A stretch of 64,000 nucleotides of DNA from Centruroides vittatus. Lineage: Eukaryota. The position numbers and the translations under genes are program-made. The notes under the pieces were generated by a model that saw only the letters and a program-made list of their open reading frames with translations, was not told the DNA's origin and did not search any database. The stretch spans positions 1,802,938 to 1,866,937 of the forward strand of contig NW_027122681.1 of the NCBI RefSeq assembly GCF_030686945.1, written 5' to 3'. Positions 8,969-51,959 of the stretch are shown here, piece after piece. Position 1 is the first letter of the stretch. Every line of letters begins with the position of its first letter.

Positions 8969-9074
8969 CATATTCTTCCAGTTTTCCAAATTTAAAGTAT
9001 CTAAACATTCGTACACACCTCCACTTTTATTAGCAATTTGTTGCAATGTATGTTTGTTGATATAAGTAGTTGAA
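8969..9074 (-). CDS. PARP4: PARP4-like exon: vWA C-part (SSTTYINKHTLQQIANKSGGVYECLDTLNLENWKNM)
   Basis: Acceptor ttttttttatag, phase 2 in; donor AATATG|gtaaatat. IAxxSGG is typical of the vWA C-terminus. Confidence 0.6.
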
Positions 9075-9165
9075 CTATAAAAAAAAAGCAAAAAGTTAGT
9101 AGTATAATAATGTAAGAAAAAGTCACATTACTTGCAATGATAATAAAATTTCGAATAGTTCCTAC

Positions 9166-9421
9166 CTTAAACCTATTGTAAATATCCTCACTTTGTTGCT
9201 ATAAGATTTGATACTTTTAAATATTATCCTTTCATTATTAATGTCACCATCACTCAAGAGAATTATATTCTTTATGCCTTTTCCAGTAGTTAATTGATAA
9301 TATTTTAAAACTCTTGAAAATTCTGTATTGCCTAATAATGTAACCTGTTTCAGGAAATTCATAGCCTTTTCCACATTTTTTGAATTACATATTTGACTTG
9401 ATGGAAATAACTCATGAAACA
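9166..9421 (-). CDS. PARP4: PARP4-like exon: vWA domain middle (VFHELFPSSQICNSKNVEKAMNFLKQVTLLGNTEFSRVLKYYQLTTGKGIKNIILLSDGDINNERIIFKSIKSYSNKVRIFTIGL)
   Basis: Acceptor ctttttgatag, phase 1 in; donor GGTTTAAG|gtaggaact, phase 2 out. LLSDGD is the vWA beta-strand/Asp motif. Confidence 0.6.
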
Positions 9422-9727
9422 CTATCAAAAAGAAAGAATATTTAAATATAAAAATAAAGAATAGAAAACTTTTGGTAAATCAAGTTTTAGTATTGTATTA
9501 TTCCTATTATTTAATTAAATAAAAATCCAGCAACAAATTGCTTAACTTTCCCAGCAAAATTTATAAGTTTGGTGGTGCCTCTGTTATATTTTATTTTAAA
9601 AACTTTTTATATTTTTCATTATTTTAAAATTGCAAAAAGCTTAATTTTAAGGGTCAAATGTTTATAAAGTATTATTGGCATGACTGGGATAAGACTGATG
9701 GAAAATTTATAGATTATGTACATAGAC

Positions 9728-10345
9728 TGTTTTTTTCAACCTCCGATGGTCCATAAAAAAAAAAAAATGACAAGAGTAAATAACAAAATGAATTTATTAC
9801 TAAAAGTTAGGTACAAACTTGGTTACTTTTCAACATAATCACCGTGAAGATTGAAGCATTTGTCATATGTGTGGATGAGCTTTTCCATCCCCTCTTCATA
9901 GAATGTTGCCACTAATGACTTGAGATGAGCCCTAATGTTGTTTTGAAGATCGTCATTAGTCTCAAATCTCTGCCCTCCTAACCACTTTTTCTGTTTAGGA
10001 AAGAGGTGGAAGTCGCTCAGTGCAAAATCAGGTGTTTAAAGATAGTAAATCCTTTCACCCAACTTGAAACTTTTTAATGTGTGAAAACTTCCACTTCTTT
10101 CCTGAACTGAAAATGTGGCTAGCAGGGCAGAGGTTTAAGACTAATGAACTAATGACAATCTTCAAAACAACATTATATGAAGAGGGATTTCAAAGCTCAT
10201 CTACAGATATGACAAATGCCTCAATCTTCACGGTGATTGCGGACGAAAAGTAATCATGTTTGTACCTAACTTTGGTAATAAATTCATTTTGTTATTTACA
10301 TTTGTCTTTGATTCATGGACCATCAGAGGTTGAAAAAACCGCTCT
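9728..10345. mobile_element. Palindromic head-to-head duplication of a mariner-like element 3' end (transposase C-terminus + terminal TTAGGTACAAAC…GTAATCAC repeat + ~80 bp flank)
   Basis: 9728-10020 matches the reverse complement of 10020-10345. For example, tttttcaacctccgatggtccat (9735) mirrors atggaccatcagaggttgaaaaa (10315). Both arms translate to …LKSLVATFYEEGMEKLIHTYDKCFNLHGDY / …TIFKTTLYEEGFQSSSTDMTNASIFTVIADEK, which is mariner transposase C-terminus-like. Confidence 0.55.
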
Positions 10346-11249: not shown

Positions 11250-11420
11250 GATATAAAATATTTAGAATAAAATTATTGTGACATCATTACAATGTTGTGC
11301 TGCAATTCTAATCATATTCTTATCTTATTCAGTTTAAAATATATACTCTTGATTTTAGTAGTGTCTTCCTCCTGTAAATCATACTTTTCCTGATAACAAC
11401 AGTGTCATACCAATCATCGG
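11250..11420. repeat. Truncated copy (head only) of the same family
   Basis: Reads gtgctgcaattctaatcatattc…aaaatatatactcttgattttagtagtgtcttcctcctgtaaatcatacttttcctgataacaacagtgtcataccaatcatcggtctaactctg. Confidence 0.5.
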
Positions 11421-11835
11421 TCTAACTCTGTTGTGGAGAAAATTTATTTTGTTTATTTCATTAAATTTATAAGAAAAGTCTAGACAGACATTTGATTTCC
11501 ACCCCATACAAAAAATATATCATAAAATAAATAATACCTCTTAAAACAAAAACAAGCAAAACAACAAAGATAAATTAAATAAAATAAAAACAAATAACAG
11601 ATCTTAAGAGAGATACAATGCTTTTTACATTTCAATTTAAAATCAGGGAAATCGGGATGTAAAAATTCATCAAAATTATTAAGATTTTGCAATATACAGT
11701 AGAAGAAAGATCATTGAGATAGATTTAGAAGATAAAAAAAAGTAAAAACATAAGTAAATGAGCAAAGTTTTCTTGATGGAATTTGAAGTGAAAGCCAATA
11801 TTGATAAATAAGACCTTTAAAATTTGTAATATATT

Positions 11836-11999: not shown

Positions 12000-12049
12000 T
12001 GACCGGATGGGCAGTCCATAATCAATGTGTAAGGGCCAGCCAATGGGAG

Positions 12050-13802
12050 AGAAAGAAAGTTACGGCGATCAAGCAGTCAGACTGACTTGTGGGAATGGAC
12101 TGACATCACTGAGACAGGTTACCATCTAAAACCGTTTAATAAACATAAAAATGGAGCTTACAAAAATGCTTTTAATTCGGCGTAACACCAATCCAACGGG
12201 CGGATCAGTCCGTGTAACAGTTCAATAGTCCCGTCGATCGTTTAAACTTCCGATGAAGGTGAGGAGGGTGGTGTCGGCCCCGGGGCACACTGCACGACTT
12301 GTTGTGACGCTTTCGGCGGCGGGATGTACCTGGTCGCAACTCGTCGGGAGCGGAGGTCGGAGACCAGGTCGAAGCGACGATCCAGACTTCGTTGTTAAAC
12401 TTTATCCGGAACCCAGTAGCGGAGCACCCTGCACCGAAGACCAAGAACTCCGAATGTCCTTGAAACGACGATTTTATAATCTTTCTCCCCCAAATCGCCT
12501 CTTCATTGGTCTCTCATTGTCACCTGGTGCCAATTCGAAACCCGATGGAGGGCGCGGGAGAGGTCATCGTCGCGACAGAACTTGATTCCTCTCTCGTCGC
12601 GTGTTTCTCGAATTCGTTCTTTTCCTTTGTTTTAAATACACAGAAAAAACTTCCATTAAACAATGGAAAGCTCCAATTTCGTCCCTTTTTAGTCGAACCC
12701 CGTTCGGGTCCTCACAGGGCACCCCCCTTTCGTTTAAAATGTCGCCACCGGATGCGACATTTTAACCACTGGCTTTTGGCCTCGCGAGCGGATACCGTTT
12801 TGAACTTCACTGGGCATCCGACATTGAACTGATAGCTCTCGCGTGGCTATCGAGTTGTAGGAGGTGTCGCGTAACATTGAATAAAAGTTCGGTTTCCTAT
12901 TGAAACAGCATTTTTTTTTCTAACCGGAACTCCCGATTTTTTTTTAATTGTTTTTAAACATTTCTGTTTTTCTCTGTAGATTGAGCGATTTATATAAATC
13001 TTAAAATCCGATTCTAAATCTCCTAAAAAGCCAAAAAGAGGCAAATACCGACTGCATTCGTGTTCCTGTCCAATTCTGCCGTTTAGGACCACGAACAGTG
13101 ATTCAATAGATGATTTGTCTCATCTGTCACAACAAGAAGCTGAGCGCAAAAGCTGTTACCTGTGCTTCCGGTATGCTTTCGTACCGGCGTACGTGCAAAC
13201 CATGTTCGGAAGTCACAAACATCTCTCTGCAGCTACGTCTCTAGCTCCCCCTTTTTTTTATGTCCGTCTTCTGATTTCGGCGACATTGTCCTGTCATCGA
13301 CTTTTTTTCGATGCAGAACATCACAATTCCAAATCACCGTCAGAGACAATTGTATTTTTCGTTGTTTCTGTCTAAAGGAGCTTTTGTAGATAACTATGAA
13401 GCAATGACGACAATTTCGGTTTTCCTCCTATTATCGTTCATCATCTCCCCTCGTTGTTTTCTGTGCGTCAGAATTTTTTTCTGGGGCAGATGTGATCATC
13501 AAGCACATGCATTTTGGGGGAAATTTTTTTTTCTTTAAATTGGATTATATGAACCACTCAATCTTTGACAAATTCATCAGTGTTCCGTTCGTGACAAATT
13601 TTTTTTTTTTTTTTGACAATTCTTGGTTTTCCGACAATTTGGAATTTGAAAAACGCGTTTCGTCATTGAACTTTCAGGATCTACAATGAGTATTTTACAC
13701 AGATGTAAATTCGTTCGCGACAATTCTGTTCACCAGGGCGATTGTTTTTCACATTTTTTTTTTTTTTGTTTTTGGTATGGTGGCCTCTTCCCTACGGAGA
13801 GC
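12050..13802. repeat. Left inverted arm flanking the gag-pol ORF; a diverged homolog of the reverse complement of about 20470-22850
   Basis: 12508-12552 (cattggtctctcattgtcacctggtgccaattcgaaaccc) matches the reverse complement of 22337-22385. 12100-12200 matches the reverse complement of 22700-22800 (cactgagacag…ggttac…aaaccgtttaat…gcttacaa). A conserved hairpin taaaatgtcgc…gcgacatttta sits at 12737-12768 versus 22065-22095. The sequence around the hairpin aligns only in inverted orientation (ctgtgagg…ccgaac). The arm carries poly-T tracts (13597-13616, 13752-13766). Confidence 0.6.
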
Positions 13803-16800
13803 TCACCATTTACATCGCGTAAATAGGCCGATAGGCGTAGGCGGCGGCAGGCGCTCGCGACCCTGAATTTGTGACGTTGACGCGCCCCCTTCTCCTTCGC
13901 TTCTGCGGAGAGGTTCCACCGTTTGCCCGTGCCTATGGGTTCGTGGCAACACCCAAGGATACTCGTCCGCGGGTCCTTGACTCCGCAAAGCGTATCGGTG
14001 TGTCGGTTGTGCCACGGTGGTTGGCTGACTACTCTCTATCGCTGCCGCGGGCTCTGCCTGATCTGGCTGTATTGACGTTAGGATAAATTCATCCCAGGGG
14101 TCTACTGTTTCGGAAGCTTGTGGTTCCGAAGCCGAAGTCTCGCCTTGAATCGTTTCTGACCTTTGTTCGCTGGTGCATAAAGACGCAAATTCCATTCTCG
14201 CGATAGCAGGTTTCAGACGATTTGCGTGAACGTGTAACTTCTTACCCGTTTGGATATGTTGGACAACAAAGTCCACAGGACTAGTCTCCGCTATAATCCT
14301 ATACGGTCCCTGCCATCTAGGTGCCAGTTTCTTTTTCAACCCAGTAGGGACTACTACTTCCGTCACAAAGACTCGGTCTCCAACTAAAAACTTATGGGGT
14401 TTATTTTTGCGCTGCTGGTATTCCTTCCTGTCCAGCGCGGCCTTTTCCGCGTGCTCTTGAGCTAATTGGTGAGCCAAAGCCAACCTCAACCTTAGCTCGC
14501 TCGCATAGTTCTCACTAACATCATAGCTTGGTCTGCTAGGTTCAGTGACCACGTCGAACGGATAAACCGGATCTCTCCCATATACTAAATAGAATGGGGT
14601 TTCATTCGTGCTGGAATGCACGGCGGTGTTGTATGCGAAAAGCGCAAACGGGACCATCTCGTCCCAGTTGCGTTGGTCTGTATCGGTGTAGTGTGTCAAT
14701 ATATCTACTAACGTTTTATTCAAACGCTCTACCATTCCATTGCATTGGGGGTGGTAGGCGGTAGTAAGCAATCTTTCTATTCGCAAAAGCTCACAAACCT
14801 CGCGCATCATTCTCGAGGTGAAATTTGCGCCTCTATCGGTTAGTAGCTGTTTCGGAACCGAATGTCTTAGGATTATGTGCGTAACAAACGCCTTAGCGAC
14901 TGTCCTGGCTGTGACGTCGGGCAACGGCACTGCCTCGGCCCAACGTGAGAAATGATCCACGAAAACCAGTAGATATCTATTGCCGTTATGGGTAGTGGGA
15001 AAGGGACCTTGAATATCAAGAGCCGTCCTCTCGAATACCTTAGTAATACGGGGAAAAATTTGCAAGGGTGCCTGATGCCCGTGCTGCGGTCTCTTTCGCA
15101 TACTACATTCCTGACATGATTGACAATAGTGAGCTATGTCCTTGTTCATGTCGGTCCAGTAGAATTGAGTGTGCAATTTTTTCTTTAGTTTCTTCGCCCC
15201 CAGGTGTCCTGAACTAGGGATGTCGTGGAACATCTTCAAGACATATTCGACCATGTTCCTGGGTATAACCAATCTGTCCCATATTTCATTTCTGTCAGGG
15301 TTAGACTTCCTATGATACAACGTCTGTTCCGTATCTAAGTAGAACTCACTACTCTCGGGACTCGGACTCTGTTCTGGTGACTGGGAACGGTCGGTTAATT
15401 TCCGTCTAATCTCTATGCAAAAGGGATCTTTTTGCTGTTGTTCTCTGATCTGGGCCTTGCTGAATATTGGGAGTAACTCGTCAATGGAGGAAATCGGCAC
15501 CCTACTCAATGCATCGGCATTGGTGTGCGCCTTTCCTGGACGATGAACTATTTCAAACTGGTACTCCTGCAGAGCCAGATTCCATCTGCTCAACCTTGAG
15601 CTCTCATCCTTCACGTTGATAAGCCATTTTAGAGGCCGGTGATCGGTTATAATTTTAAACTTCCGACCATACAAATATGGCCTAAAATACTTTATGGCCC
15701 AGATGACGGCTAGACATTCCTTCTCCGTCGTGCTGTAGTTTCGCTCGGCTTTCTTGAGCAAGCGGCTCGCGTAAGCCACTGGTAGGTCGCCGCTTTCGTC
15801 CTCCTGCGACAACACAGCGCCTATTGCTACATTGGATGCGTCTGTTGCTATAATGAAGGGTCGACTAAAGTCAGGCGATCGCAGAAGCGGAGCAGAGGTC
15901 AACGCTTTCTTCAATCTCTCAAAAGCTGACTCCTGTTCCTCTTGCCATTGGAATTTCGTTTCTTTCTTCAAAAGCTCGGAGAGAGGCCTTGACATTTTCG
16001 CGTATTGGGCTATATGTCTTCGATAGTATCCAGTCAATCCCAAAAATGCCCGGACATCTCGCTCATTTCTCGGCCGTGGGAAGTCTCGAACAGATTCTAT
16101 TTTTCCCGAATCCGGTCGGATTCCCGCTTCGGAGACCTCATGTCCCAAAAATTTTATCTGTCTCTTTAAAAAGTGACATTTCCTAGGCTTAAGTTTTAAT
16201 CCCGCTACGGCTAATCTTTGGAAGACTAGTTCTAACCTCTCTAGATGAGAGTGGAAGTCGGGACTAAACACAAGGATGTCATCCATATATACTAAGCATA
16301 TTTTGTTCTTCAGCCCACTTAATATCAAATCGGCGCACCTTTGGAATGTGGCCGCTGCGTTGCATAAACCCATCGCGAGGCGATTAAAGTGGTAATGCCC
16401 CGATGGAGTACTGAACCCCGTTTTCTCTTTTGAATCCGGGCTCAGCGGCAGTTGCCAATAGCCACTCAACGTGTCCATAGTAGAATAATATTTGGTCTTG
16501 CCCAATAAGCTCAATGATTCCTGAATCAATGGCAAGGGGTATGGATCTACCTTCGTCACTTTATTTAATTGCCTATAATCTACCACAAATCGATAGCTCG
16601 AATCAGCTTTCTTGACTAATAAAGCTGGCGATGACCATGGGGAGCTGGAGGGTTCAACTACCCCACTCTCCATCATGTCTTCAATTAATTTGTCCATAAC
16701 TTCTCGCTGCGCATAGGGAATGCGATATGGAGCCCGATAGAGTGGAGGACTATCGCCCGTATCTATCTTATGCTCGGCAAAATTGCAATAGCCCAAGTCA

Positions 16801-19325
16801 AAATCATCCCTCGCAAATACCTGTCTGTATTTATACAATAGGTCCAGCAGAGGGGTCAGTTTGTCCTTCCCTATTTCGCTTAAATCGAATAAATTTGCTA
16901 CTTGAGCTCTAGTTAACTCCTTTCCCTTAGGACGTAATGCATTATTTCGTTCGCCCATTTCCTTTGTTTCTTCCTCCGCCTTAAAAAAGGTGCCTACTTT
17001 ACTTCCTCTATTTAATTTAATAGGTTGAGTTGCAACATTCATAATTCTAATCGGTATTTTACCGCGGTGTTGTGTTTTCACTAAGATCCCTGCTATAAAC
17101 GTTTCTTCTCGGTCTAAGGTGCAAGGTTCTACTACTCCTACCTGGTTAACGACTTCTCCTCTCACATTTCCTTCCACAATGACTTCCGATCGCGGAGGAA
17201 TTACGCAATCGTTTAACAACACGACGTCTTTCGGAGCGTCATCTTCCCTTTTGTTTTTTCTAACCGCTGAACTTTGGTTTAGAGTTTCTAAATTGTTTCT
17301 CTGTTTGCTTATCCGCACGCGGCTACCTTTTCTTTGTCTTTTATATTTGTTACATTTATTAAACTTGTTCCTAACTTCGCCAACATAGTCTAATCGTGTC
17401 ACATTTTCCTCGACCCTAACATGTGGCTTCTTCTCTTTCTGTCTATTATCCCTTGTTTCTAATCTTCGCGGATTACTAACTTTGTTGTGAAAACTCGCTA
17501 ATCCCCAAAAGGTTATCTCATCTCCCGTTGGGAATATTAGCTTCGCATTTTTAATGGATATGGTTATATCATATTTCTCAATTATATCCCTTCCTAAAAT
17601 TCCCTCATTTGGCTCGGTTATTTTAGGGTCTACCACGTAACAGTCGTGCGAAAACGCTAGGTTGCCAATTTTAAATTTTATGTTATATTTTCCCATTGTT
17701 TCTATTTCATGCCCTGTTACGCTTATTAACTCTACCGCGCTCGTTTCCGCTTTCTGCACTTTGCTCAAATCAGGAAAGAGAGTTTTAGATACTAATGTAA
17801 CGGCTGCGCCCGTATCTATCGTTAGTCGCGTTCTTTTACTTTCTATTTCGCAGACCAAGGTACACGGCGGTAATTCCAGCGGAGAATCCTCACTCTTTGA
17901 TCTCCCGACTCCCGCTAATGGGATTGTATTGCGCGCTTCCTCCTGTAACCGTTCCCAGTCGCGTGGTTGATCTCTAACTTTAACCGTGATAACTCTATCG
18001 CCGCGATTCCCTTTTGAACTATCTCGCCTTCCTTCCCTCTGATAATCGGCTTGTTCGCCGCTTCCTTCTGAACTTGGCAAGGCTAGGCATTTGCTGGCGG
18101 TCGCCCCAAACGGTGTTCGCGGCGTCGCGTAACTCCCTTCCGGCCAATCCTGATCGTACCGCGCCGGAAAATAAGGCGTTTGTTCCCAATTTTGCCCTTC
18201 ATTTTGCCCAAACTGCCTATAATGGGCCTGATAAAAAGGAGCACGACCCGTATATTGTAAATACAATGGGTTTGGAAAGGGTGCTATCGGGGTTTGTTTC
18301 CTAGACACCGACTGATCGCACTGGTTAAATTCCGGCCATACCTGATATGAATGGACAAAAGGCAAGGGTTTTTCCCGGTCTACTTGTCCCGTTAGTGGAA
18401 AAGGGTTCGGTCCGCGGTATTGCCACAACGGCCTTGGATAGAAATTCGCGGGAGAGGGCCTAAATGATCGCCCACCCGGGGGTCTAGAAAAGTTCGGAGG
18501 CCGTGGTTGGCGTTGCCCGCTCGAATAATTCTGCGCTTTTCCCCTTCCAAAATTGGGTGTAGTAGCGGATTGGGGTGTTTGCCTAAATTGCGTGTACGCC
18601 TCCTTACGAGGATTATTTATTGGTTCTTTTGAAATGCGCTTCTCAAATTTTTTTCCTAAATCTTCGAGTTGCCTCGAAATTTGCTCGATTTTCGCATCCA
18701 GCGCGGGTTCTTGGGTTACGTTTTTGTTCTCCCTTTCTAGTGCGTGATCGTCCTGCGTTTCCTCTACGCCCGCAACCAAATTCCTATTTTTCCCCGTTAG
18801 CTGTTCGATCGTTTCCTCCCTAATCGCTATCCTTAATGCTTCTGCGAATGTGGGAGGGTCTTGTGCCATAACATTTCTTTTATGCTTCTCGTTTAGTCCG
18901 TACAAAAATTGGACGTGAAGCTTTTCATCTAGCTCCCGCTGCAGACATTGTCTTATGGTGGCGTGCTCCTGCTCTGTCGTTCCCGTGTGTTGGATGGTCG
19001 TCGCGCTGGCTAGAGTTTGCAACCTAACCGCAAATTCTTGCACCTTTTCTTCCCGTCTCTGGACGCAAGCGTGAAATTTTTGCACGCGAATCGAATACGG
19101 TTCTTGGTTAAACCTCTGCACCATTAATCGTCGAAACTCGTCGTACGCGATAACGCTTTTCATCTGCATGTCCCTCCATGCAAAATCTCTGGCTACGCCC
19201 GCTAGTTTGCATTTCGCGATACCTAATTTCTGTCTCGCGGTCCATCCCGCTAAGCTGGCTACCTCGTCCAACGTATCAAAAAAGTCGGAGATGCGCCCGC
19301 TTTCCCCGGAAAAGGTTGGGATCAT
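13803..19325 (-). CDS. Intact 1840-aa gag-pol polyprotein of an LTR-retrotransposon type (capsid-like Gag; aspartic protease DTGA; RT with YMDD; RNase H; HHCC + DDE integrase)
   Basis: A single uninterrupted ORF. Motifs seen: LTIDTGAAVTLVS (protease); YYSTMDTLSGYWQ and CLVYMDDILVFS (RT); IIATDASNVAIGAVLSQ (RNase H); HYCQSCQECSMRKRP (HHCC zinc finger); LVFVDHFSRWAEAVP…LLTDRGANFTS (DDE core); GDRVFV…KLAPRWQGPYRI (integrase C-terminus). The PR-RT-RH-IN order fits Ty3/gypsy or BEL-Pao. GC content is about 48% versus about 25% in the host. Confidence 0.9.
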   Translation of the reverse strand: MIPTFSGESGRISDFFDTLDEVASLAGWTARQKLGIAKCKLAGVARDFAWRDMQMKSVIAYDEFRRLMVQRFNQEPYSIRVQKFHACVQRREEKVQEFAVRLQTLASATTIQHTGTTEQEHATIRQCLQRELDEKLHVQFLYGLNEKHKRNVMAQDPPTFAEALRIAIREETIEQLTGKNRNLVAGVEETQDDHALERENKNVTQEPALDAKIEQISRQLEDLGKKFEKRISKEPINNPRKEAYTQFRQTPQSATTPNFGRGKAQNYSSGQRQPRPPNFSRPPGGRSFRPSPANFYPRPLWQYRGPNPFPLTGQVDREKPLPFVHSYQVWPEFNQCDQSVSRKQTPIAPFPNPLYLQYTGRAPFYQAHYRQFGQNEGQNWEQTPYFPARYDQDWPEGSYATPRTPFGATASKCLALPSSEGSGEQADYQREGRRDSSKGNRGDRVITVKVRDQPRDWERLQEEARNTIPLAGVGRSKSEDSPLELPPCTLVCEIESKRTRLTIDTGAAVTLVSKTLFPDLSKVQKAETSAVELISVTGHEIETMGKYNIKFKIGNLAFSHDCYVVDPKITEPNEGILGRDIIEKYDITISIKNAKLIFPTGDEITFWGLASFHNKVSNPRRLETRDNRQKEKKPHVRVEENVTRLDYVGEVRNKFNKCNKYKRQRKGSRVRISKQRNNLETLNQSSAVRKNKREDDAPKDVVLLNDCVIPPRSEVIVEGNVRGEVVNQVGVVEPCTLDREETFIAGILVKTQHRGKIPIRIMNVATQPIKLNRGSKVGTFFKAEEETKEMGERNNALRPKGKELTRAQVANLFDLSEIGKDKLTPLLDLLYKYRQVFARDDFDLGYCNFAEHKIDTGDSPPLYRAPYRIPYAQREVMDKLIEDMMESGVVEPSSSPWSSPALLVKKADSSYRFVVDYRQLNKVTKVDPYPLPLIQESLSLLGKTKYYSTMDTLSGYWQLPLSPDSKEKTGFSTPSGHYHFNRLAMGLCNAAATFQRCADLILSGLKNKICLVYMDDILVFSPDFHSHLERLELVFQRLAVAGLKLKPRKCHFLKRQIKFLGHEVSEAGIRPDSGKIESVRDFPRPRNERDVRAFLGLTGYYRRHIAQYAKMSRPLSELLKKETKFQWQEEQESAFERLKKALTSAPLLRSPDFSRPFIIATDASNVAIGAVLSQEDESGDLPVAYASRLLKKAERNYSTTEKECLAVIWAIKYFRPYLYGRKFKIITDHRPLKWLINVKDESSRLSRWNLALQEYQFEIVHRPGKAHTNADALSRVPISSIDELLPIFSKAQIREQQQKDPFCIEIRRKLTDRSQSPEQSPSPESSEFYLDTEQTLYHRKSNPDRNEIWDRLVIPRNMVEYVLKMFHDIPSSGHLGAKKLKKKLHTQFYWTDMNKDIAHYCQSCQECSMRKRPQHGHQAPLQIFPRITKVFERTALDIQGPFPTTHNGNRYLLVFVDHFSRWAEAVPLPDVTARTVAKAFVTHIILRHSVPKQLLTDRGANFTSRMMREVCELLRIERLLTTAYHPQCNGMVERLNKTLVDILTHYTDTDQRNWDEMVPFALFAYNTAVHSSTNETPFYLVYGRDPVYPFDVVTEPSRPSYDVSENYASELRLRLALAHQLAQEHAEKAALDRKEYQQRKNKPHKFLVGDRVFVTEVVVPTGLKKKLAPRWQGPYRIIAETSPVDFVVQHIQTGKKLHVHANRLKPAIARMEFASLCTSEQRSETIQGETSASEPQASETVDPWDEFILTSIQPDQAEPAAAIESSQPTTVAQPTHRYALRSQGPADEYPWVLPRTHRHGQTVEPLRRSEGEGGASTSQIQGRERLPPPTPIGLFTRCKW

Positions 19326-19992
19326 CCCACCACACTGGTGTCAGAGAAGTGGGATTTTAAATGCAGAATTTGCACAAATTCAGCGGGCCCACACTATAGT
19401 TGAGGATGCCGACATCAAAATTTCGCCCCGAAATTGAGTTAAAGGTGGGTCGGAACGATAGATGCTGAGACAGACACTTCGGCGCGAACTCGCGAGTTAG
19501 TTAGCAGTTCTCTTTCATTGGCCTTGGGAGGAATGATACCTGCTTTATTCGGTGAAAGTAAGCGTATTATGACTTCTTCGATCCCTTAAAAAAATATCGA
19601 GCTTAGCTGGATGATCCCGCAGAAATGCTTTAGTTAACCAAGCGCAAGCTCGCAGGTGCGACAATGATAGAATAAATAGGCTTGACCGAGCAACAAAACG
19701 CCACTATAAAATAGTGCCAGCAGCGGAAGTAGGCAAGATGTTCCGAGGTCAGTTTTTCAAAATATAAGTAAAAACATTAAACTGAGCGTCAGGATGCTTG
19801 GCACTGCTTCATTCACAAAAGCTCTAAAGGTAGCCATTAGGGAAGAAACGAGTGACTAGCAGAATGCATAGTTTTGTCAGGCGCGAAGCTGAAACGACGG
19901 AGAATAACCTAATGGATTCGGGAAGAGTGAAACTCCATAAGAAATCTGCGTTCGGTGCAAAGATGGGTCAAAATTTTAAACAGTTTAAAACT

Positions 19993-20427
19993 TTAGGAAA
20001 AATTGTTAGATAATCGAACATTGTCAGTACCGCTAACTGGTGCGCAAAGATAATATTCAGAATAAACAAACAGGACAACCCATGGAACGAGGGAATAGCG
20101 AAGTAGGAAACGCACACCCCTATCCGAATTCGCTGCAATGCTTTTCGCAACCTCATAACATGCAACCACTGTCGCCCGATTGGTATGGAGAAAAGGACGT
20201 CCCTCTGCCATCTCTAGTCGAGTGGAAATCGAGGCCAATGCGTTGCAGGTTCCGATTATAAATCCATCGTATTCATTGCGATATAGGCTAATTATTTCAG
20301 TAGATACTCTTTCATCAATCGCAGAATAGGCAAATCGAATCCGAAGTCGATTGAAATTTAGAACAGGCACTTTATGTAGAGGATTTTCTGACAGTATTAG
20401 CCCGGAAACAGGCCAATGCGACCGCAA
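19993..20427 (-). other. 144-aa ORF in the unique leader between the right arm and gag, same strand as gag-pol (possible accessory ORF)
   Basis: Six-frame ORF MRSHWPVSGL… of 144 aa with no recognisable domain. It lies 670 nt upstream of the gag ATG. Confidence 0.15.
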
Positions 20428-20469
20428 CTAGATGCTTAGCTTTTCTCAGTCCCAAGGTAGACGCAAAGC

Positions 20470-22850
20470 AAGCAGATTGTCAATTGCGAAAAAAAATATA
20501 GCAACTTTAACCTAAGGTTAAGATTACAAGCAATTACGGTATCCTACTCTCTTTTTTCTATCGGTCCGGTTTTGCGAACTGTGAATGATGAACTTTCATT
20601 CTGGAGAGGAGAGATCATCATAAAAACAAAAGCGAATGTTAATTTTAATTGAATTCACGTTTTCTGAAAATAAAAATTGTCGCTGAAAAAAAATGTATGC
20701 AAAAAACGTGCTTAAATGTTAAAATTGTCGCGAATCGGAATTCAAGTCAATGTGAGCGTGGTGCATTTCGAAAGGGAGCCATAGTATTGTTTTTGTTTCG
20801 TGTAAACTGTTCTGTCCATCCCTTACGAAGCGCTCACGATTGAGCCTACACTGGTCAAGGGAAGAGAGTCATGTCGGGGAAGCGACTTATCTCCTTGGTC
20901 AACGCCTTTCCAAAATTTTCTCACACTTAGGATAGATGACAGAAAATTGTCACTTTGTCTGTCCTAGAGAGAATGAGGATTTGATCACTCTCGAGAAAAC
21001 TTAACGATGATCTTCTATTTGATTCGCGCTCATCGGAAAACAATTTTGTCGTGATCAAAACATTGATGAAAACTTCTGTTATAGATTGAGTAATTTATAT
21101 AGTCAAAATGTCAGAAAATTTTTTCCTTTTTTGCGTACATGATGATTGATCATACCTGTCACAGTCGAGACTGCGAATAGACTCTGACCAGATCAAACGG
21201 AAGTTACGGAATAACACTCTGAACTGTGTGACCTTGATTAGCGGTAATCTGCGTCGGAAAACCGATGATAGAGAACTGTCACTGGTTCAAGAGACTGACA
21301 TCCGGAAGTTATGGCCGTAAAGACATTGGCAAGATCACAACTGCACACCGTCAATGCAGAAGCTCCATGATCCTCTTTCGGTCCAGTACAAAAAAAAAAA
21401 AAAAAAAAAAAAAAAATGGAAAAGATTTGACCCCCATGGTAAAGACGAAGTTTTTCAGAAAACTTGGAACGGAACTAGATGCATAGCTTCGAAAAGCACG
21501 TGTCTTCAACTTAGATCCAGAGAACTCCGCGCTACACGTGCACCTGAATGGCTATGAAGTTCCCAAGTTCCAATTCTGATTGAAACAGGCGAATTAAACT
21601 AAACGTTGAACCTGTTATCAGATTTCTGAATCAGATGTTCCGAAAAATTAGGAAGGGAACACGAATACATTCCATTCCTCCCCCCTCCGTTTCAGACCAT
21701 TTTCTGAAAATTTTGAGATTGTGTGAATTGCTCAGTCTGAAAACGAAAAACGAAAAAAAAACTCACATGTTTTAGAAAATAGTTTGTCGATCATTTATGT
21801 TGTTAAAATATTATTCGATGACCGTGATTGTTATTTGATTATTTGTAACCAATCTTATAAACAGACATGTGATGTTACACAAACATTTCGATGAATTGTA
21901 AACGATATTCTATACCATTCAATAATGTATCGAAAAAAAAAACTTTGGTGTAACTCGAAACCGAACGCGCGCCAGAGAAGGCTGGATTCTCAGACAAGTA
22001 TCGCTGTTACGTCACTTGGCAAACAAAGGGAGAAAGGACTGTCAGCTTCCAGAGCTGCCAGCTAAAATGTCGTTATTCCGTTACGACATTTTAAATTGGC
22101 GGGAAGCTCTGTGAGGCTCTGGATAGGTCCGAACCTCACTGAAATTCGCGTTAAAATCATTTATTTTTAGAAAAAAATTATTTTTTTTTAGAGAAAAAAA
22201 AAATAGAAGTTAGAAATAGTTTTTCTTAAGGAAAACGACGCGAACTGTTAAACAATAGAACAATGGGGAAACGTAGATCGTCTATCTCCGAGTGGGAATC
22301 GAATTAAACTTCGATTTTGACCTCTCCTGCGCCCCCGAAAGGTTTCGAATTGTCACCAGGTGACGAGAAGAGACCAATCGGAAAGCGGAATCGGAGGAAA
22401 ACAGATAAAACCTGAGAATTCAAGGACGCGAGGGCTTCTTCTCCCGAAAGTTCCAAGTGACGGATCTATTGTTGTGTGTGTGTCTGGTGCCCATCTTCGT
22501 CTCCGTCTCCCGACCTCGGATCGACATCTTTCCATCAACGGAAGTCGACCGCATCGTCCTGGAGTCGCGGAGTCGTCGAGGGAACTGGCCATTCGCGACC
22601 TAGGGACACTCCTTCAAAATGAGACTATATTCGAAAGGAGAGGAAGACCCAGAGACTGCTGCCGACCTAGAACTTCCAAGATCGCGGAAATCTTGTAAGC
22701 TTCTTTCGTGTCAAATAAACGGTTTCTTGTAACCGTAGAGTCTGTCTCAGTGCCGGTCGCCCACATACGACCCTTCGCGACCGCTCGACCCTCTTGACAT
22801 AGTCGGCACCCTGTCGGCAAACTCACAAATGCAAGGTTGAAAATTAACAT
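20470..22850. repeat. Right inverted arm (reverse-complement homolog of 12050-13802)
   Basis: See the left arm. It holds a poly(A)27 tract at 21380-21406 and repeated aaattgtcgc motifs. These appear on the opposite strand in the left arm (gcgacaatt), consistent with inversion. The inner boundary is uncertain; 19326-20470 looks unique. Confidence 0.5.
21380..21406 (+). repeat. Poly(A)27 homopolymer inside the right arm
   Basis: cagtac(a)27tggaaaag. The mirror poly-T tracts are at 13597-13616 and 13752-13766 in the left arm. Confidence 0.8.
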
Positions 22851-22929: not shown

Positions 22930-23135
22930 TTTAACTAGTTTATCAATATGATTCTTGAAAGTTATTTTTAATTGAAATCATGTAACTTCCAGTCCAGACT
23001 GGAAGTTCATACATATTTAACCAGGGCCCTTAACTTTCCATATCTGGTTTCGATTTTCATCTATCTCTGTTCTCATGATTAATAAAAGATGGACAGAGAG
23101 ACAATAGAGGGAATGTATGGGGCTGAAATTTGAAA
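22930..23135. repeat. Copy of the same family (middle + tail), abutting the right arm of the gag-pol unit
   Basis: Reads ccagactggaagttcatacatatttaaccagggcccttaactttccatatctggtttcgattttcatctatctc…gacagagagacaatagagggaatgtatggggctgaaatttgaaaaatttcagacc. Confidence 0.5.
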
Positions 23136-23813
23136 AATTTCAGACCAATTACTTTAACTTCATAACTGTAGATACTACAAAGTTAAATATGATACAGTTT
23201 ACTAATATATGATTACAATACAAAAGTAAAACAAATAATAATATTAGAACATTCAAAATTTTATGATTAAACTATTATGAACTTGAAATGGCCATGTATG
23301 TGGCTGAGATAGTTAAAGTATCATCTTATTGCTCTTGGAGATCAGGGTATCAAATCAAGGCAATCAAAAAACCCCAGGAATTTTTCACAGACTCTCTTGT
23401 ATTTGTTGGTCATGAACCTCACCACCTCCCTTCCCTCATTGTGACCAAATCCAAAATGGTTATGAAAAAGGCAGTTCTACTGCTCACAAAAATAAACAAA
23501 CCTTAAACTGAAATCAATTTAGAGATATTCCTTTACTTCTACTCTATCTTTGTATTATAAATAAATTGACTTTATCTGATACCAAAAAATAGACTGATCA
23601 TTTTACTATTATAATTTGGAAAAAATAGTTTTGGATTTATATTATCAAGACTAATTATAAACAGTTCAATATTCTTCACTTAGATTACAAAATCAAAAAT
23701 AATTTCTGATATTTATTTAACTAAAATACATGTTTCCATCATTTCAAATTGCACTAATATTTACCAAAACAGATATATTTATAACACGATTTATTACATA
23801 TTATTTAACATAC

Positions 23814-26215: not shown

Positions 26216-26651
26216 CTAAAATTAAGTTAAAATATACATTTCAATATTATAATACTAATAATATTAGATTAACAGATTTTCATTTACTATAATTATTACA
26301 AACTGTATAAATAATTGCCAAGCCCCATATTAATATATAAATACATAACTGCCATATTTTTCAGACTATATTGTGATTGCTAATTCATTACATAAACTAA
26401 ATAGTTTAGTTTAAAGGCAGACACTTAAAATTCATCTTCTATTAAATTTATTAACCAGAAATTAATTTAGATTAAAATTAATAATTTAGAATTTTATGGA
26501 AGAAAAGAATGACTCAGAATGGACTTGATTTTGCATCTTTAATACATCATGCAGATGCTTTACCAGTTATACTGCATGTAACTCCATCTGATCTTTTCTT
26601 CCAGACATGTGTTATTCAAAGTCATATAGTCAAACATGTTAATTATGTGAG

Positions 26652-27356
26652 TGTAAAGGTCGCCTTTGGTGGCCTGTGTCAAAGAAACCGCCCGACTGAG
26701 GTAATTGCTCCCACCTGGGGTCGGGGCCATAAACGGCCGGAAGGATCAAAGGTGGAGCGTCTCCACTTAAGGGACAATGTGTTGGCCACGTGCCGGCCAG
26801 CTTGAGAAAACAAGAATAAATAAAGCACGGACGCAAATGTGAGCTACGTCGGCGGGAGATAGGGCGGACGTCTTGGAAGGCTCTAAGAAGGGAAAGGAAG
26901 TGATTGGTCGCAGGAGGCAGTGCCAGAATCCCTTAAATTGGAAGGGTGGCAAAAAAGCGAGGAGAAAGGGCGAGGGACCTGGTACGTGGCGGTCTCTAAC
27001 AACAGGCAGACCTTTGAGGCGGATAGAGAGAGTGTTCTCCTCTTGGAAAGTCCTCTGGAGAAAGGTTGTTGTAGAGACGGACGGCCACGAGGTTAAGCCA
27101 TCTCCGGAAGAGTGACTCGTGTTCCCAGGCCAGCTAAGTCGACGTGCTGCATCACAGCTTCGATACTGTAGTGTACGTAATGCTATTACATAGTGTATAT
27201 CTTTGTAAATATTTGTAAATAAACTGTATATAACTAATTATCGAGTGTGGAGGTGTGACTTTCAACGGACCATCAAACGGACAATCTCGAGGCGTAAAGA
27301 ACGACTCGGGACGGAACATTTGTAAAGATCACGAGACGAGTAAGAAGGATCTTCAC
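26652..27356 (+). repeat. 5' LTR (705 bp) of a young non-autonomous LTR retrotransposon
   Basis: Near-identical to 29688-30392, with one visible mismatch (gggaaagg versus ggggaagg). Starts TGTAAAGG and ends …CTTCAC. It is followed by a TGG-type PBS, TGGCGCAGTCTTCGAC, at 27357. Confidence 0.85.
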
Positions 27357-27826
27357 TGGCGCAGTCTTCGACAGGATATTCTTGCAAATCTTCAGGAGAT
27401 TCTCGCAAGACGACAGGAAAGTACTGAGCCCACATTCGAGATTTGGATACTTACGGAAGGAAGAGTAGCCGGAAATCAAGGCGGAACAGAACTCAACATT
27501 GGTAAGTTGTTCTTGATTATTTGTATTCAGAATGCCGGGACGCGGAAGGACTCAAGGGTCAAAAAGGGGTATGCCATGTTCTGAGGATCAGGGAGGTCGG
27601 GCTGATCTTAGTCAATCCCAGGAAATGGATACGGAGCCAGAAAGGGAAATTTTGGACCCCGAGGTCGAGGTTACAGACAACCAGAATGAAATAGAGGGGA
27701 CGTGAGTCTGACGAGTTAGAGAAGTTACGCTTGCAGATTAGACTAGCCGAAATAGACTACTAAAAACAAAGAAATAGAAATTAAAAACAGGAAATTGAAA
27801 GGGACATTAGAAAAAGCGAAATCGAA

Positions 27827-29500
27827 ATGGAAATTAGAAAAAGCGAAATAGAGTTAGAGAGAGATCGTCTACGAAGTGAATCTAGGACTAGTAATAACTC
27901 TGAGCTGGGAGGTAACTTGGATAGCCTAGCTAGAAAAATCAGATGGGCTTTACCTAAAATGCCAGACAAGGAGGCGGAAGTACCGTCGTGGTTTCGGGCC
28001 GTAGAGGTAGTGTTACAAACGTACGATGTGCCGGAAGAACTTCAGGGGCAGCTAGTTTTAACGGTGCTATCGGAGAAATGTAAAACGGCGTTAAATAGGC
28101 TTACGGCAGACGAGATCAGGGATTACCAAACCTTAAAACAATTCCTACTAGACGAGCTGAGACTGTCTGCCGCTGAGTACCTCAAAGAGTTCACTTCCGC
28201 TGAAAAGGGAAGCAAAGAAACGTGGCCCCAATTTGCAGCTAGAATGGAGGATCTGTATCGGTATTATCTGAATAGTAGAGGCGTAGATTCTTTTGGGCAG
28301 CTAACAAAATTAGTGGTCTCGGATCACCTTAAGACTAAGTTAGATGCCGACACTAAGCGTTACGTTTTGTTGCAAGAAGGTAAAGGCTGGTTCCCACCGG
28401 AAGAGTTAGCCAGATACGCAGATAAGCATGCGGAGGCTGTGGGAAAGGGTGACGTTAGACTTATACCTGAACGCGAAAGGGATAGAACAGTCACTAGAAC
28501 TGGAGGCATGAGCGCGAACAATGGAGGATCAAGAATGAGATGCTATGTCTGTGACCAAATGGGTCATCTCAGAAGGGATTGTCCTCGGAGACATATTAAA
28601 GAGGAAGGACCGAAGTCTAAAGCAACGCGAGCGGTTAAAATAGACGAAACGGTAGAATCGGACGAGCAGCTAGTAGCTAGGGTAAAGGTGAACAGGGAAA
28701 CGATCAGCGGAAACGTACCCGTTAGTGTAAACAAAAATCTCCTGCTCGCTTGTAAAGATAATAAATTTTCTGCAATAGTGGACACGGGGGTAGATATGAC
28801 GGTTATTAGGAAGTCTGTAGTGCCTGTTTACGTGTCGCGGGCAGCGAGAAAGGTTAAGTTGATCAGCGCATTTGGGCAGCAGGTATCAGCAGTGTTAGCG
28901 ACAATACCTGTAAGACTAGAAGGGAGGTCGAATAAAAAGAAAAATGATTACGCTCCAGCCTTGATAACTTGCGCATTAACTGACGAACTTAGCTGCGGTA
29001 CAGATGCATTACTTTCGGCAGCCGATTATTGCGTTTTGAGGAGAGTCGAACGGACGAAAACGAATAGGCGACGGAAACCAGTCGCGAGGGTTACGGTTGC
29101 GAAAGAAAGCGGGGAAAATAGGACGAGCCCCACGACAAATAAAAAGAGCGATGCTAGAAAATATTGTAAGGCGGGTCATGGTCGGCAGGCAAGCGTTCCC
29201 CTTCGGCTAGTTGACCGCACGCCTCTTAAGGAACAATCGGTCCCTAGGGCATTGGTAGCGCGGGATAATAAGGCAAAAATCGCGCACAGAAGAGGGAAAA
29301 ATCGTAATGAGATCGACGTACTATCCAGACGGGAAATCAGGAGCAATCCGGAACCCCCAGATCGTACAGACAAGGCAGTTATGTCGGTATTAAGTCCTTC
29401 GGATAGATGTAATCAGTATCTACCAGGCGATTCTGAATGCAATGTGACGGGACAATTTGCCGAAGATGTTATTGACTGTGTAAAATATCTTTTTCTGTAA
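27827..29500 (+). CDS. Gag-protease ORF (557 aa) of the truncated LTR element: capsid-like domain, CCHC zinc knuckle (CYVCDQMGHLRRDCP), aspartic protease (IVDTGVDMTVI); no RT or integrase
   Basis: ORF 27827..29500. The ORF ends 187 nt before the 3' LTR. A polypurine tract ggtgggagg lies immediately before the 3' LTR. Confidence 0.8.
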   Translation: MEIRKSEIELERDRLRSESRTSNNSELGGNLDSLARKIRWALPKMPDKEAEVPSWFRAVEVVLQTYDVPEELQGQLVLTVLSEKCKTALNRLTADEIRDYQTLKQFLLDELRLSAAEYLKEFTSAEKGSKETWPQFAARMEDLYRYYLNSRGVDSFGQLTKLVVSDHLKTKLDADTKRYVLLQEGKGWFPPEELARYADKHAEAVGKGDVRLIPERERDRTVTRTGGMSANNGGSRMRCYVCDQMGHLRRDCPRRHIKEEGPKSKATRAVKIDETVESDEQLVARVKVNRETISGNVPVSVNKNLLLACKDNKFSAIVDTGVDMTVIRKSVVPVYVSRAARKVKLISAFGQQVSAVLATIPVRLEGRSNKKKNDYAPALITCALTDELSCGTDALLSAADYCVLRRVERTKTNRRRKPVARVTVAKESGENRTSPTTNKKSDARKYCKAGHGRQASVPLRLVDRTPLKEQSVPRALVARDNKAKIAHRRGKNRNEIDVLSRREIRSNPEPPDRTDKAVMSVLSPSDRCNQYLPGDSECNVTGQFAEDVIDCVKYLFL

Positions 29501-29687
29501 AATATTAAATACTGTATATTGTTAGTATAGTTTATTATTTGTAGTAACTTGATCCTTGTAATAAGAAAGGAGGAAGTGTAGTGTAACAAAATAATTTGTA
29601 CGGTAAAGATTGCTGTGTGTCGCGGTAGTATTGTTTATGTCAAACAGGCTTTTGTTGAAGCGCAGTTTGAACCTTGTCGGTGGGAGG

Positions 29688-30392
29688 TGTAAAGGTCGCC
29701 TTTGGTGGCCTGTGTCAAAGAAACCGCCCGACTGAGGTAATTGCTCCCACCTGGGGTCGGGGCCATAAACGGCCGGAAGGATCAAAGGTGGAGCGTCTCC
29801 ACTTAAGGGACAATGTGTTGGCCACGTGCCGGCCAGCTTGAGAAAACAAGAATAAATAAAGCACGGACGCAAATGTGAGCTACGTCGGCGGGAGATAGGG
29901 CGGACGTCTTGGAAGGCTCTAAGAAGGGGAAGGAAGTGATTGGTCGCAGGAGGCAGTGCCAGAATCCCTTAAATTGGAAGGGTGGCAAAAAAGCGAGGAG
30001 AAAGGGCGAGGGACCTGGTACGTGGCGGTCTCTAACAACAGGCAGACCTTTGAGGCGGATAGAGAGAGTGTTCTCCTCTTGGAAAGTCCTCTGGAGAAAG
30101 GTTGTTGTAGAGACGGACGGCCACGAGGTTAAGCCATCTCCGGAAGAGTGACTCGTGTTCCCAGGCCAGCTAAGTCGACGTGCTGCATCACAGCTTCGAT
30201 ACTGTAGTGTACGTAATGCTATTACATAGTGTATATCTTTGTAAATATTTGTAAATAAACTGTATATAACTAATTATCGAGTGTGGAGGTGTGACTTTCA
30301 ACGGACCATCAAACGGACAATCTCGAGGCGTAAAGAACGACTCGGGACGGAACATTTGTAAAGATCACGAGACGAGTAAGAAGGATCTTCAC
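29688..30392 (+). repeat. 3' LTR (705 bp) of the same element
   Basis: Direct repeat of 26652-27356. A TGTGAG target-site duplication is present (26646-26651 and 30393-30398). Confidence 0.85.
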
Positions 30393-30394
30393 TG

Positions 30395-31640: not shown

Positions 31641-31801
31641 ATCAGTGTTTGTTTTGGTACTGATGTGTCTGTAGAAGAGTTTTTATTGTTTGTGAATAAT
31701 TTTGTTGTTTTTGTAGTGAACATGTTTTTATTATTATTATTATTAAAGTAATTAAATTAGTAATAATTAAATTTTTCATTAGAAATATAAACAAAACCAA
31801 C

Positions 31802-32038
31802 CTTGCAGAATCTGTAAAATAAATTCCACTGCCAAGCATTCCAACATCAGTTCTTTCAACTCCAGATTCTGCTACAATAACTTTTGGCAACTTCAAACCA
31901 CGTGAAAGAATACCAACAATGTTAGAAGATACAGTAGAGTGAAATAATAATTGTTTGTTTGTTATTTGGCTTGCAAATTCTGCATATTCTATATCACGAT
32001 GAATAGCATAAATATTATGAACTTTAATACATGTTTCC
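31802..32038 (-). CDS. PARP4: PARP4-like exon: PARP catalytic domain, H and Y of the triad (…LLFHSTVSSNIVGILSRGLKLPKVIVAESGVERTDVGMLGSGIYFTDSA)
   Basis: Acceptor ttttgtag; donor CTGCAAG|gttggtttt. It closely matches the PARP signature LLWHGSRxxNxxGILSxGLRIAPPEAPxTGYMFGKGIYFAD. Overlaps ORF 31642..32082. Confidence 0.7.
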
Positions 32039-35774: not shown

Positions 35775-36020
35775 ACAGAATATTAAAACACAATGAAACA
35801 AACAATTATTTATTGTGACATTGTCACAATGCCATGCAGCAATTTTTAATCATCTTTTAATTTTAAAAAATCATGGAACTTCCAGAAGTTAATCAGGGTC
35901 TCAAGCCCTAAGCTTTCCATATCTGGTCTTGATTTTCATTTATCTAATTCCATTCTCAAAATTAATAAATGAGAGAGAGAGACAGACAGACAACATGGAA
36001 ATGTATATATCTGCAATTTG
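35775..36020. repeat. Copy of the same family (head truncated, middle + tail present)
   Basis: Reads tgtcacaatgccatgcagcaatttttaatcat…ccagaagttaatcagggtctcaagccctaagctttccatatctggtcttgattttcat…gacagacagacaacatggaaatgtatatatctgcaatttgaaaattatagg. Confidence 0.55.
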
Positions 36021-36630
36021 AAAATTATAGGATAAAAAAAGAAACAAAAATAGATTTTTTGCAGGCACAGATAACTGTGGATTAGAATTGATAACATCAT
36101 TTATTAACAAGACTTTGATATTACTTCAATTAAATATAACTTCATCATTCACTGTTTGATCCATCCGTTGACCACACCCAAAATATTTAATAATAGCAAG
36201 CTGCAACTTTTGTATGCCTTTTCGAGTGTCCACGATTCCTGAAGAGATGTTAAAAAGGCATTGACTGGATTAACAGTTCCATAATATAAAATTTCTTGGT
36301 ATGTTCATTTTCATTGAACTTACTGAAATTTTTCTCATTTAAGGAATAATGAAAATGTTCAGACCACTACATAAATGCTTGCTTTATGAATTGTTTATCA
36401 TGTTAATACAGTAAGACCTGCATGCATCAAAAATCCTGCAACATTCAATTAATGTTCATCAACTTAACAATAAACTTAACTTAAATGACTATCATTAAAG
36501 TAAAAATACTGTATTAAATTTTACTTCATTATCAGGAAGTTTTTCTTCTAATAATGGATGAGATAAGTATATTTTACAAGTCATGTACGCGTGTGTTTAA
36601 GAAACAAAATACATATATTAAAAACAATAC

Positions 36631-51910: not shown

Positions 51911-51959
51911 CGCTTTAGCTTGTTTTGGTCGTGGAGCTACACATTGGAGGGCGGACGCG

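Follow-up and report, generated by a model that had tools for sequence, protein, structure and literature searches.

A head-to-head pair of Ty3/gypsy elements in Centruroides vittatus and its probable origin as one aberrant cDNA

A 64,000-nucleotide stretch of the Centruroides vittatus contig NW_027122681.1 (GCF_030686945.1, forward-strand positions 1,802,938 to 1,866,937; hereafter the window, in whose coordinates all C. vittatus positions are given) contains a gag-pol retroelement that an initial annotation described as intact and flanked by inverted rather than direct long terminal repeats (LTRs). Sequence comparisons show directly that the locus (12028-22827, 10.8 kb) is made up of two elements joined head to head, an intact element on the minus strand, termed E1, and a second, degenerate element on the plus strand, termed E2. 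Each element ends outward in its own 3′ LTR, and because both 5′ LTRs are absent, these two 3′ LTRs form the inverted "terminal repeats" of the locus.

The open reading frame (ORF) of E1 (13803..19325, minus strand) encodes a gag-protease-reverse transcriptase-RNase H-integrase (gag-PR-RT-RH-IN) polyprotein of 1840 amino acids, and the claim that it is uninterrupted was borne out. The ORF lies within a GC-rich island (0.39-0.48) in surrounding host DNA of 0.25-0.30 GC. Pfam matches were obtained for Asp_protease_2 (residues 492-580), RVT_1 (904-1064), RT_RNaseH (1152-1255), Integrase_H2C2 (1354-1412), rve (1439-1526) and Integrase_p58_C (1673-1706), as well as for SH3_Tf2-1 and, weakly, for Retrotrans_gag; the DTG, YMDD, HHCC and D,D,E motifs are all retained. 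The domain order is that of Ty3/gypsy (PR-RT-RNaseH-IN, with a DDE integrase C-terminal to RT), and E1 is a new member of an arachnid Ty3/gypsy family. Assignment to BEL-Pao, for which a BEL/Pao-type protease (Peptidase_A17) and associated gag domains served as the criterion, was rejected because the Pfam matches are only of retropepsin or gypsy type (RT_RNaseH, Integrase_H2C2, SH3_Tf2-1).

Read in the sense of E1, the ORF is followed by a 3′ untranslated region (3′ UTR) of 1086 bp (12717..13802, minus strand), which ends at 12717..12763 in a hairpin (arms 12763-12754 and 12745-12736) and a polypurine tract (PPT), GAAAGGGGGG, adjoining the LTR. The 3′ LTR itself (12028..12716, minus strand; 689 bp) reads TGTGAGG...CCTTACA in sense and was delimited by a five-way alignment with Centruroides sculpturatus LTRs and by BLAST. 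Its signals include a CCAAT box (GAGACCAAT), a TATAAAA and an ATTAAA poly(A) signal, and at 12505..12566 (minus strand) it carries the E1 copy of a conserved U3 block, composed of TTTCGAATTG, the palindrome GTCACC(A/T)GGTGAC and the GAGACCAAT CCAAT box. The leader, primer-binding site (PBS) and 5′ LTR of E1 are all gone. Neither a repeat finder nor self-BLAST with word sizes of 7 and 11 detected a direct repeat around the E1 ORF, in agreement with the initial annotation, which had found no direct LTR pair beside it.

E2 occupies the plus strand from 19333 to 22827, a stretch that is collinear, in sense, with the whole C. sculpturatus element in segment-wise alignment. Its PBS (19336..19356, plus strand), TGGTGTCAGAGAAGTGGGATT, is complementary to the 3′ end of tRNA-Leu(CAA) except for a 2-nt insertion. 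The sequence starting at 19336, TGGTGTCAG(AG)AAGTGGGATT, matches TGGTGTCAGAAGTGGGATTCGAACCC, the sequence of a published probe with complementarity to the 3′ end of the same tRNA (PMC7997516), and on account of this match it is a bona fide PBS. It is followed by a leader (19357..19532, plus strand), which aligns to the leader of the C. sculpturatus element, and by a gag remnant (19533..20483, plus strand; about residues 1-430) that has its own ATGATACCT start at 19533 and contains many stops and frameshifts. A tblastn search of the polyprotein against the window returned weak plus-strand gag remnants at 19649-19729, 19764-19850 and 20310-20483, and the gag of E2 aligns better to C. sculpturatus DNA than to E1.

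The remainder of the E2 coding region, PR-RT-RH-IN, has been lost through an internal deletion of ~4.2 kb relative to E1, placed approximately at 20484..20557 (plus strand). Positions 20418-20482 of E2 correspond to 18104-18040 of E1, and positions 20558-20631 then correspond to 13834-13764, this second match being marginal, at the maximum obtained with shuffled sequences. Beyond the deletion lie a 3′ UTR (20558..22109, plus strand), with a hairpin (22063-22073 / 22083-22093) and the PPT GGCGGGAAG (22098-22106), and a 3′ LTR of 718 bp (22110..22827, plus strand; TGTGAGG...CGGCAAACTCACA), again delimited by the five-way alignment and carrying the E2 copy of the U3 palindrome/CCAAT block at 22318..22378 (plus strand). 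A PPT thus stands upstream of the 3′ LTR in both elements, and a PBS, without its LTR, is found in E2 alone. E2 is a non-coding, pol-deleted relative of E1 in which PBS, PPT, hairpin and LTR motifs are retained.

The closest public protein is the product of C. sculpturatus LOC111624612, with 74% amino acid identity over the integrase part; a search with the C-terminal part of the integrase matched only more distant arachnid relatives. Exact look-ups of the 1840-residue protein, and of the 557-residue protein encoded nearby, gave no match. The C. sculpturatus locus, here called L001 (KZ494166.1, 9032-22518), is a tandem LTR-internal-LTR-internal-LTR array whose direct LTRs of ~806 bp (9032-9835, 15390-16192 and 21715-22518) are mutually 96-97.5% identical. 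Its LTRs end in CGGCAAACCTCGCA, where that of E2 ends in CGGCAAACTCACA. In BLAST searches, positions 12301 to 12069 of the window, taken in the sense of the ORF, matched the 3′ part of all three L001 LTRs in sense orientation, and positions 22187-21046 matched the 3′ UTR and LTR start of L001 in reverse orientation. At the inner end of E2, the LTR-end/PBS sequence 19333-19375 matches L001 9834-9876, and the leader aligns to L001 9984-10081 (9984-10090 for the stretch 19441-19541). The array is bounded by a single 4-bp target-site duplication (TSD), TACT|TGTGAGG...CTCGCA|TACT, and the family therefore makes 4-bp TSDs at these boundaries. As evidence that would speak against it, the initial annotation had named genomic copies of the same family with ordinary direct LTRs identical to one of the arms; L001, a canonical family member whose direct LTRs are homologous to the arms, supplies this in essence. 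Another Centruroides locus, L002, is broken up by 4.3 kb of N and carries no information on LTRs, and two more, L003 and L004, are short Logan contigs that did not enter the comparison.

With its three LTRs, L001 fits the "complex element" class, whose origin has been ascribed to reverse transcription of heterodimers or to unequal recombination. Both internal copies of the array lack the same stretch, corresponding to about residues 693-1264 (RT and RNase H). In addition, copy 1 carries a 59-nt duplication at 9829-9905, giving two tandem LTR-end/PBS-like sequences (CCTCGCACTGGTGTC... twice), and copy 2 has one; this duplication could be a trace left at the PBS by faulty priming or strand transfer in the same family.

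The homology between the two outer arms of the C. vittatus locus is visible only by lenient gapped alignment together with segment-wise chaining. Lenient gapped local alignment of one flank against the other scored 310 in inverted orientation, whereas the direct orientation scored 72 and dinucleotide shuffles 109 +/- 14, and the best segment matches between the arms form a collinear anti-diagonal chain from 12107/22752 to 13529/21118. A repeat finder with a seed of 12 and a minimum length of 40 was blind to both arms, stringent local alignment returned ~110 nt only, and BLAST produced a single high-scoring pair (12505-12566 versus 22378-22318; 62 nt, 84% identity, E=5e-11). In global alignment the arm LTRs are 51% identical, values of 72-84% being reached in islands only. 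The flanks had been described at first as reverse complements of 75-85% identity: the inverted homology is real and far above chance, but that degree of identity does not extend over kilobases. The shared block singled out in the same description is the one found by BLAST; a conserved hairpin, present in both arms, and mirrored A/T tracts (13746-13773 and 21397-21423) proved equally real, and the outer limits of 12050 and 22850 are replaced by 12028 and 22827.

In the five-way alignment both arms, read outward, are collinear with the C. sculpturatus sequence throughout. The shared order opens with the hairpin (AAAATGTCG...CGACATTTT), the PPT and the LTR start TGTGAGG, continues with the U3 block, containing the GTCACC(A/T)GGTGAC palindrome and GAGACCAAT, and TATAAAA, and closes with AATAAA or ATTAAA, CCTGTCTCAGT and the ...CA terminus. 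Since each arm consists of 3′ UTR, hairpin, PPT and 3′ LTR and shares its sense with the direct LTRs of C. sculpturatus, the arms belong to two different, facing elements. The islands that are conserved between them correspond to cis elements, namely the termini, CCAAT, TATA, poly(A) signal, PPT and hairpin, a pattern expected for an autonomous element and a trans-mobilised partner.

Directly upstream of the PPT, the stem-loop is kept in E1 (12736-12763), E2 (22063-22093) and C. sculpturatus (L001 15343-15372), with z-scores of -1.7, -4.3 and -5.4, respectively, in contexts of 59-60 nt. At the tenth position of the stem, E1 has a C-G pair and E2 a U-A pair, so that pairing is preserved. This hairpin may serve as a cis element for plus-strand priming or packaging. 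An outer stem in the hairpins of E2 and C. sculpturatus pairs part of the PPT.

Alignments to the C. sculpturatus element place the head-to-head junction at 19326..19335. On the minus strand it reads ...CTGACACCAG-TGTG-GTGGGATG (also written ...CTCTGACACCAG-TGTG-GTGGGATG...) and falls within a 13-nt near-palindrome, CACCA-GTG-TGGTG. Homology of E1 to the C. sculpturatus element begins at 19330, 5 nt before the E1 ATG, and E2 retains at most four bases of U5 (CACA) plus a spacer C, which puts the junction within ~4 nt of the U5/PBS boundary of E2. According to the standard model of LTR-element replication, a full-length minus-strand complementary DNA (cDNA) has the U5 tip at its 5′ end and the PBS/U5 boundary at its 3′ end. 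The E2 half of the locus spans the reverse complement of the U5 tip, at 22827, to the reverse complement of the PBS plus a few bases, at 19333, and is then followed directly by E1 sense sequence as far as the U5 tip of E1. The junction coincides, within ~4 nt, with the natural 3′ end of an E2 minus-strand cDNA.

Despite their common organization, E1 and E2 are not close copies of each other. LTR identity is 51% between E1 and E2, 59% between E1 and C. sculpturatus and 53% between E2 and C. sculpturatus, and the three-way informative LTR sites group E1 with C. sculpturatus at 146 positions, E2 with C. sculpturatus at 109 and E1 with E2 at 96. E1 and E2 accordingly represent separate lineages of one family and not sister copies.

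The composite, read on the plus strand, starts with TGTAAGGGCC at 12028 and ends in ...CTCACA at 22827, and the host sequence AATG stands on both sides of it (AATG|TGTAAGG...CTCACA|AATG; left copy 12024..12027, right copy 22828..22831). In a scan of +/-15 nt at each end, AATG was the only TSD compatible with TG...CA ends, and the chance of a 4-mer match at fixed boundaries, given the host composition, is P=0.008. Furthermore, the observed/expected ratio of CpG is 1.34 in the LTR and 1.20 in the 3′ UTR of E2, compared with 1.22 and 1.25 in E1 and 1.35 and 1.28 in C. sculpturatus, while host DNA is CpG-depleted (0.38-0.57). By this measure E2 does not seem to be a much older resident, its CpG content being as high as that of E1 and unlike that of the host. 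Together, the shared 4-bp TSD and the undecayed CpG of E2 suggest that both halves arrived at the same time, and they argue against the idea, raised at the outset, of a gag-pol element sitting inside an older foldback.

The reading that we favour, and regard as probable, is that two Ty3/gypsy elements, related but distinct and of which E1 is autonomous, were joined head to head into the chimera at 12028-22827, which was inserted as one aberrant cDNA. In this scenario, E1 RNA and E2 RNA would have been co-packaged in one virus-like particle, where the 3′ end of the E2 minus-strand cDNA would have paired, through a microhomology of a few nucleotides, with a site close to the start of gag on the E1 minus-strand cDNA. 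The strands would then have been extended on each other; alternatively, two linear cDNAs with one LTR each could have been end-joined. Either route would yield a duplex with a U5 end at each terminus, which integrase would have inserted in the normal way, with AATG duplicated as the 4-bp TSD. Over their first 6-7 bp the U3 and U5 tips hardly differ (TGTGAGG versus TGTAAGG/TGTGAGT), so integrase could accept such a U5/U5 substrate. Lacking both a 5′ LTR promoter and a PBS that E1 could use, the composite cannot replicate and is dead on arrival, and the E1 ORF would be intact because the insertion is young.

Of the options considered in the initial annotation, rearrangement or capture is the one that gained support, in that a plus-strand gag remnant, then a leader and a PBS, adjoin the right-hand block on its inner side. 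Its further conclusion, that the arms are not the LTRs of this insertion, holds for the right arm, which is the 3′ LTR of a second element; it fails for the left arm, which is the 3′ LTR of E1 itself.

Several points weigh against the single-cDNA reading. A template switch and end-joining cannot be told apart from the sequence, and the TGTG at the junction could stem from the U5 of E2, from the leader of E1 or from filler. A 4-bp TSD has a chance expectation of ~1% and is suggestive, not proof. The CpG argument assumes that CpG decay in the host acts on inserted elements. The host flanks yielded no clean empty site, as they are separate members of a SINE-like (short interspersed nuclear element-like) family. 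Finally, E1 and E2 are each seen at this single locus, and the membership of E2 in a propagating non-autonomous family is an inference.

The strongest rival, which we consider unlikely although not negligible, holds that two complete elements were inserted head to head, either as neighbours or by double insertion into one AATG target, and that a later central deletion removed the 5′ LTR and leader of E1, the spacer and the 5′ LTR of E2. The quasi-palindrome formed by facing LTRs may have promoted such a deletion, palindrome-centred deletions being common. Double insertion into one target would likewise leave identical outer TSDs, and the anatomy of the locus is equally compatible with this account. 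In Drosophila, LTR retrotransposons are known to form inverted tandems by double insertion (PMC5932611). However, three events are needed, and the deletion must have ended within ~4 nt of the U5/PBS boundary by chance, a coincidence of roughly 1% over ~1 kb. For insertions that were simply neighbours, the TSD match (P=0.008) must also be coincidental. With an identity of only ~50%, the facing 5′ LTRs would have been poor substrates for recombination or for forming a cruciform, and E2 shows no compositional ageing relative to E1.

An assembly artefact, in which a short sequence, shared or palindromic, led the assembler to join two unrelated copies, is very improbable. Repeats are classic sites of mis-assembly, and the junction does lie inside the 13-nt near-palindrome. 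Nevertheless, a matching TSD at the exact LTR tips is not expected from a chimeric join, and arms that are ~51% identical offer no long repeat to collapse.

We give still slightly less credence to a propagating lineage of DDE-integrase gypsy elements with two outward U5 LTR ends and a functional E2 half, or to its weaker version, in which PBS-joined head-to-head heterodimer cDNAs are a recurrent, integrase-competent by-product. Proper TG...CA termini, a TSD, an intact ORF and the cis-motif islands kept in both arms would fit such a lineage. The closest relative, however, has canonical direct LTRs and a TSD, which also leaves the unusual architecture proposed in the initial annotation unsupported. 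The E2 half can be recognized as a second copy in decay, which has a PBS, a leader and an ATG of its own and a gag that is dead. Nor do the arms resemble each other more than they resemble the element of another species, whereas a mechanism that regenerates copies would homogenise them. In addition, there is no direct R repeat and the PBS is on the wrong strand for E1, which makes the canonical strand transfers of the established retroviral replication model impossible.

An inverted duplication of a single element (snap-back cDNA or genomic palindrome) with one arm later decayed or deleted is just as improbable: head-to-head geometry centred at the PBS is what self-primed minus-strand DNA would give, and the TSD fits a single integration, but twin arms should share derived states, whereas sites shared by E1 and E2 alone form the smallest class and E1 is closer to the C. 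sculpturatus LTR, a divergence of ~50% in one arm is incompatible under neutrality with a 5.5-kb intact ORF in the other, and the CpG content of E2 is still high.

Set beside known systems, the locus has much in common with the canonical Ty3/gypsy family of C. sculpturatus (LOC111624612): the gag-PR-RT-RH-IN order, LTR tips TGTGAGG...CA, the CCAAT/TATA/AATAAA islands, a hairpin and PPT before the 3′ LTR, a tRNA-Leu(CAA)-type PBS, a 3′ UTR of ~1.1-1.4 kb and a 4-bp TSD. The composite has the TG...CA termini and a TSD within the 4-6 bp range that characterize Ty3/gypsy. Unlike the C. sculpturatus copies with their direct LTRs, it lacks any 5′ LTR and carries two outward 3′ LTRs of different lineages. 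The C. vittatus copy is a defective derivative of a family that has direct LTRs.

Complex (heterodimer) LTR insertions have been proposed to arise via abnormal template switching, with flanking TSDs as the signature of a single integration (Sabot and Schulman, 2007; PMC1950507), and L001, with three LTRs and its TACT TSD, is a textbook example of this class. The C. vittatus locus resembles these complexes in having two internal regions, one flanking TSD and a proposed origin in a single round of reverse transcription on two RNAs packaged together. It differs in orientation and in its LTRs: the described complexes are head-to-tail, with a shared central LTR and near-identical outer LTRs, whereas here the elements are head-to-head, no central LTR is present, and the outer LTRs are U5-out and ~51% identical. 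Inverted tandems produced by double insertion (McGurk and Barbash, 2018; PMC5932611) likewise place two inverted LTR elements at one site, but they keep all LTRs and a junction copy of the TSD, and the C. vittatus locus has neither the inner LTRs nor the E1 leader and is joined at the PBS.

A likeness to DIRS elements, to which the initial annotation had compared the inverted termini, lies in the inverted long terminal repeats around an RT-containing ORF (PMC3950715; PMC7192593). In the literature searched, "inverted LTRs" were mentioned only for DIRS elements. Unlike those elements, the C. vittatus locus has a DDE integrase and a TSD, and its apparent inverted terminal repeats are the U3-R-U5 LTRs of two elements. 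Pfam detected no tyrosine recombinase domain in the E1 polyprotein, and self-BLAST of the window showed no internal region complementary to the termini, a DIRS trait. A DIRS-like identity was rejected on the basis of the rve/H2C2 integrase, the lack of a recombinase match and the presence of a TSD, and the analogy does not hold. The locus is a defective, inverted variant of known complex/heterodimer LTR insertions and not a new class of retroelement.

On the single-cDNA reading, the locus would be a natural record of aberrant reverse transcription, in which two genomes were joined at the end of a minus-strand cDNA and integrated with a normal TSD. If confirmed, it would provide in vivo evidence that an arachnid packages autonomous and non-autonomous LTR elements together, indicate that U5/U5 substrates are tolerated by a gypsy integrase, and represent an inverted counterpart to the head-to-tail "complex elements" of cereals. 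Such copies will be missed by LTR finders and missed or misdated by age estimates based on LTR pairs, and an intact gag-pol ORF without an LTR pair need not imply a domesticated gene.

Other features of the window include SINE-like host repeats, whose copies (11273-11445, 23026-23149, 35810-36024, 38614-38753, 43713-43849, 48233-48346 and 48615-48727) are ~70-81% identical to one another; members are found a few hundred bases beyond both ends of the composite. A small LTR element at 26651-30394 has direct repeats of 708 bp (26651-27358 and 29687-30394) that are 99.86% identical, with TGTGAG/TGTGAG-type duplicated bases at the LTR tips, and its 557-residue ORF (27827-29500, plus strand) contains only a zf-CCHC knuckle and a retropepsin. 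It is therefore a young, non-autonomous LTR retrotransposon of the gag-PR-only kind, and its sequence shows no relationship to E1 or E2. An inverted repeat at 51733-52884 / 57782-58933 (1152 bp, 99.65% identical, ~4.9 kb between arms) was considered as a second example of inverted LTRs and rejected, as it shows no pol similarity and no Pfam match; the ORFs inside 51.7-58.9 kb (at most 161 residues) gave no significant Pfam match and no similarity to the E1 polyprotein. This repeat could be a DNA element with long terminal inverted repeats, a foldback or an inverted duplication.

A tRNA-Ala (GGC) was called at 44991-45063 (minus strand), and a 146-residue ORF at 31642-32082 (minus strand) matches the PARP catalytic domain (E=2e-11) and probably represents part of a host gene of the PARP family, either an exon or a fragment. 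Nested inverted repeats at 9724-10345, with 55-nt arms (9837-9891 / 10184-10238, 89% complementary) inside 44-nt outer arms (9724-9767 / 10302-10345, 80% complementary), suggest an element resembling a miniature inverted-repeat transposable element, or a foldback element, in the AT-rich flank.

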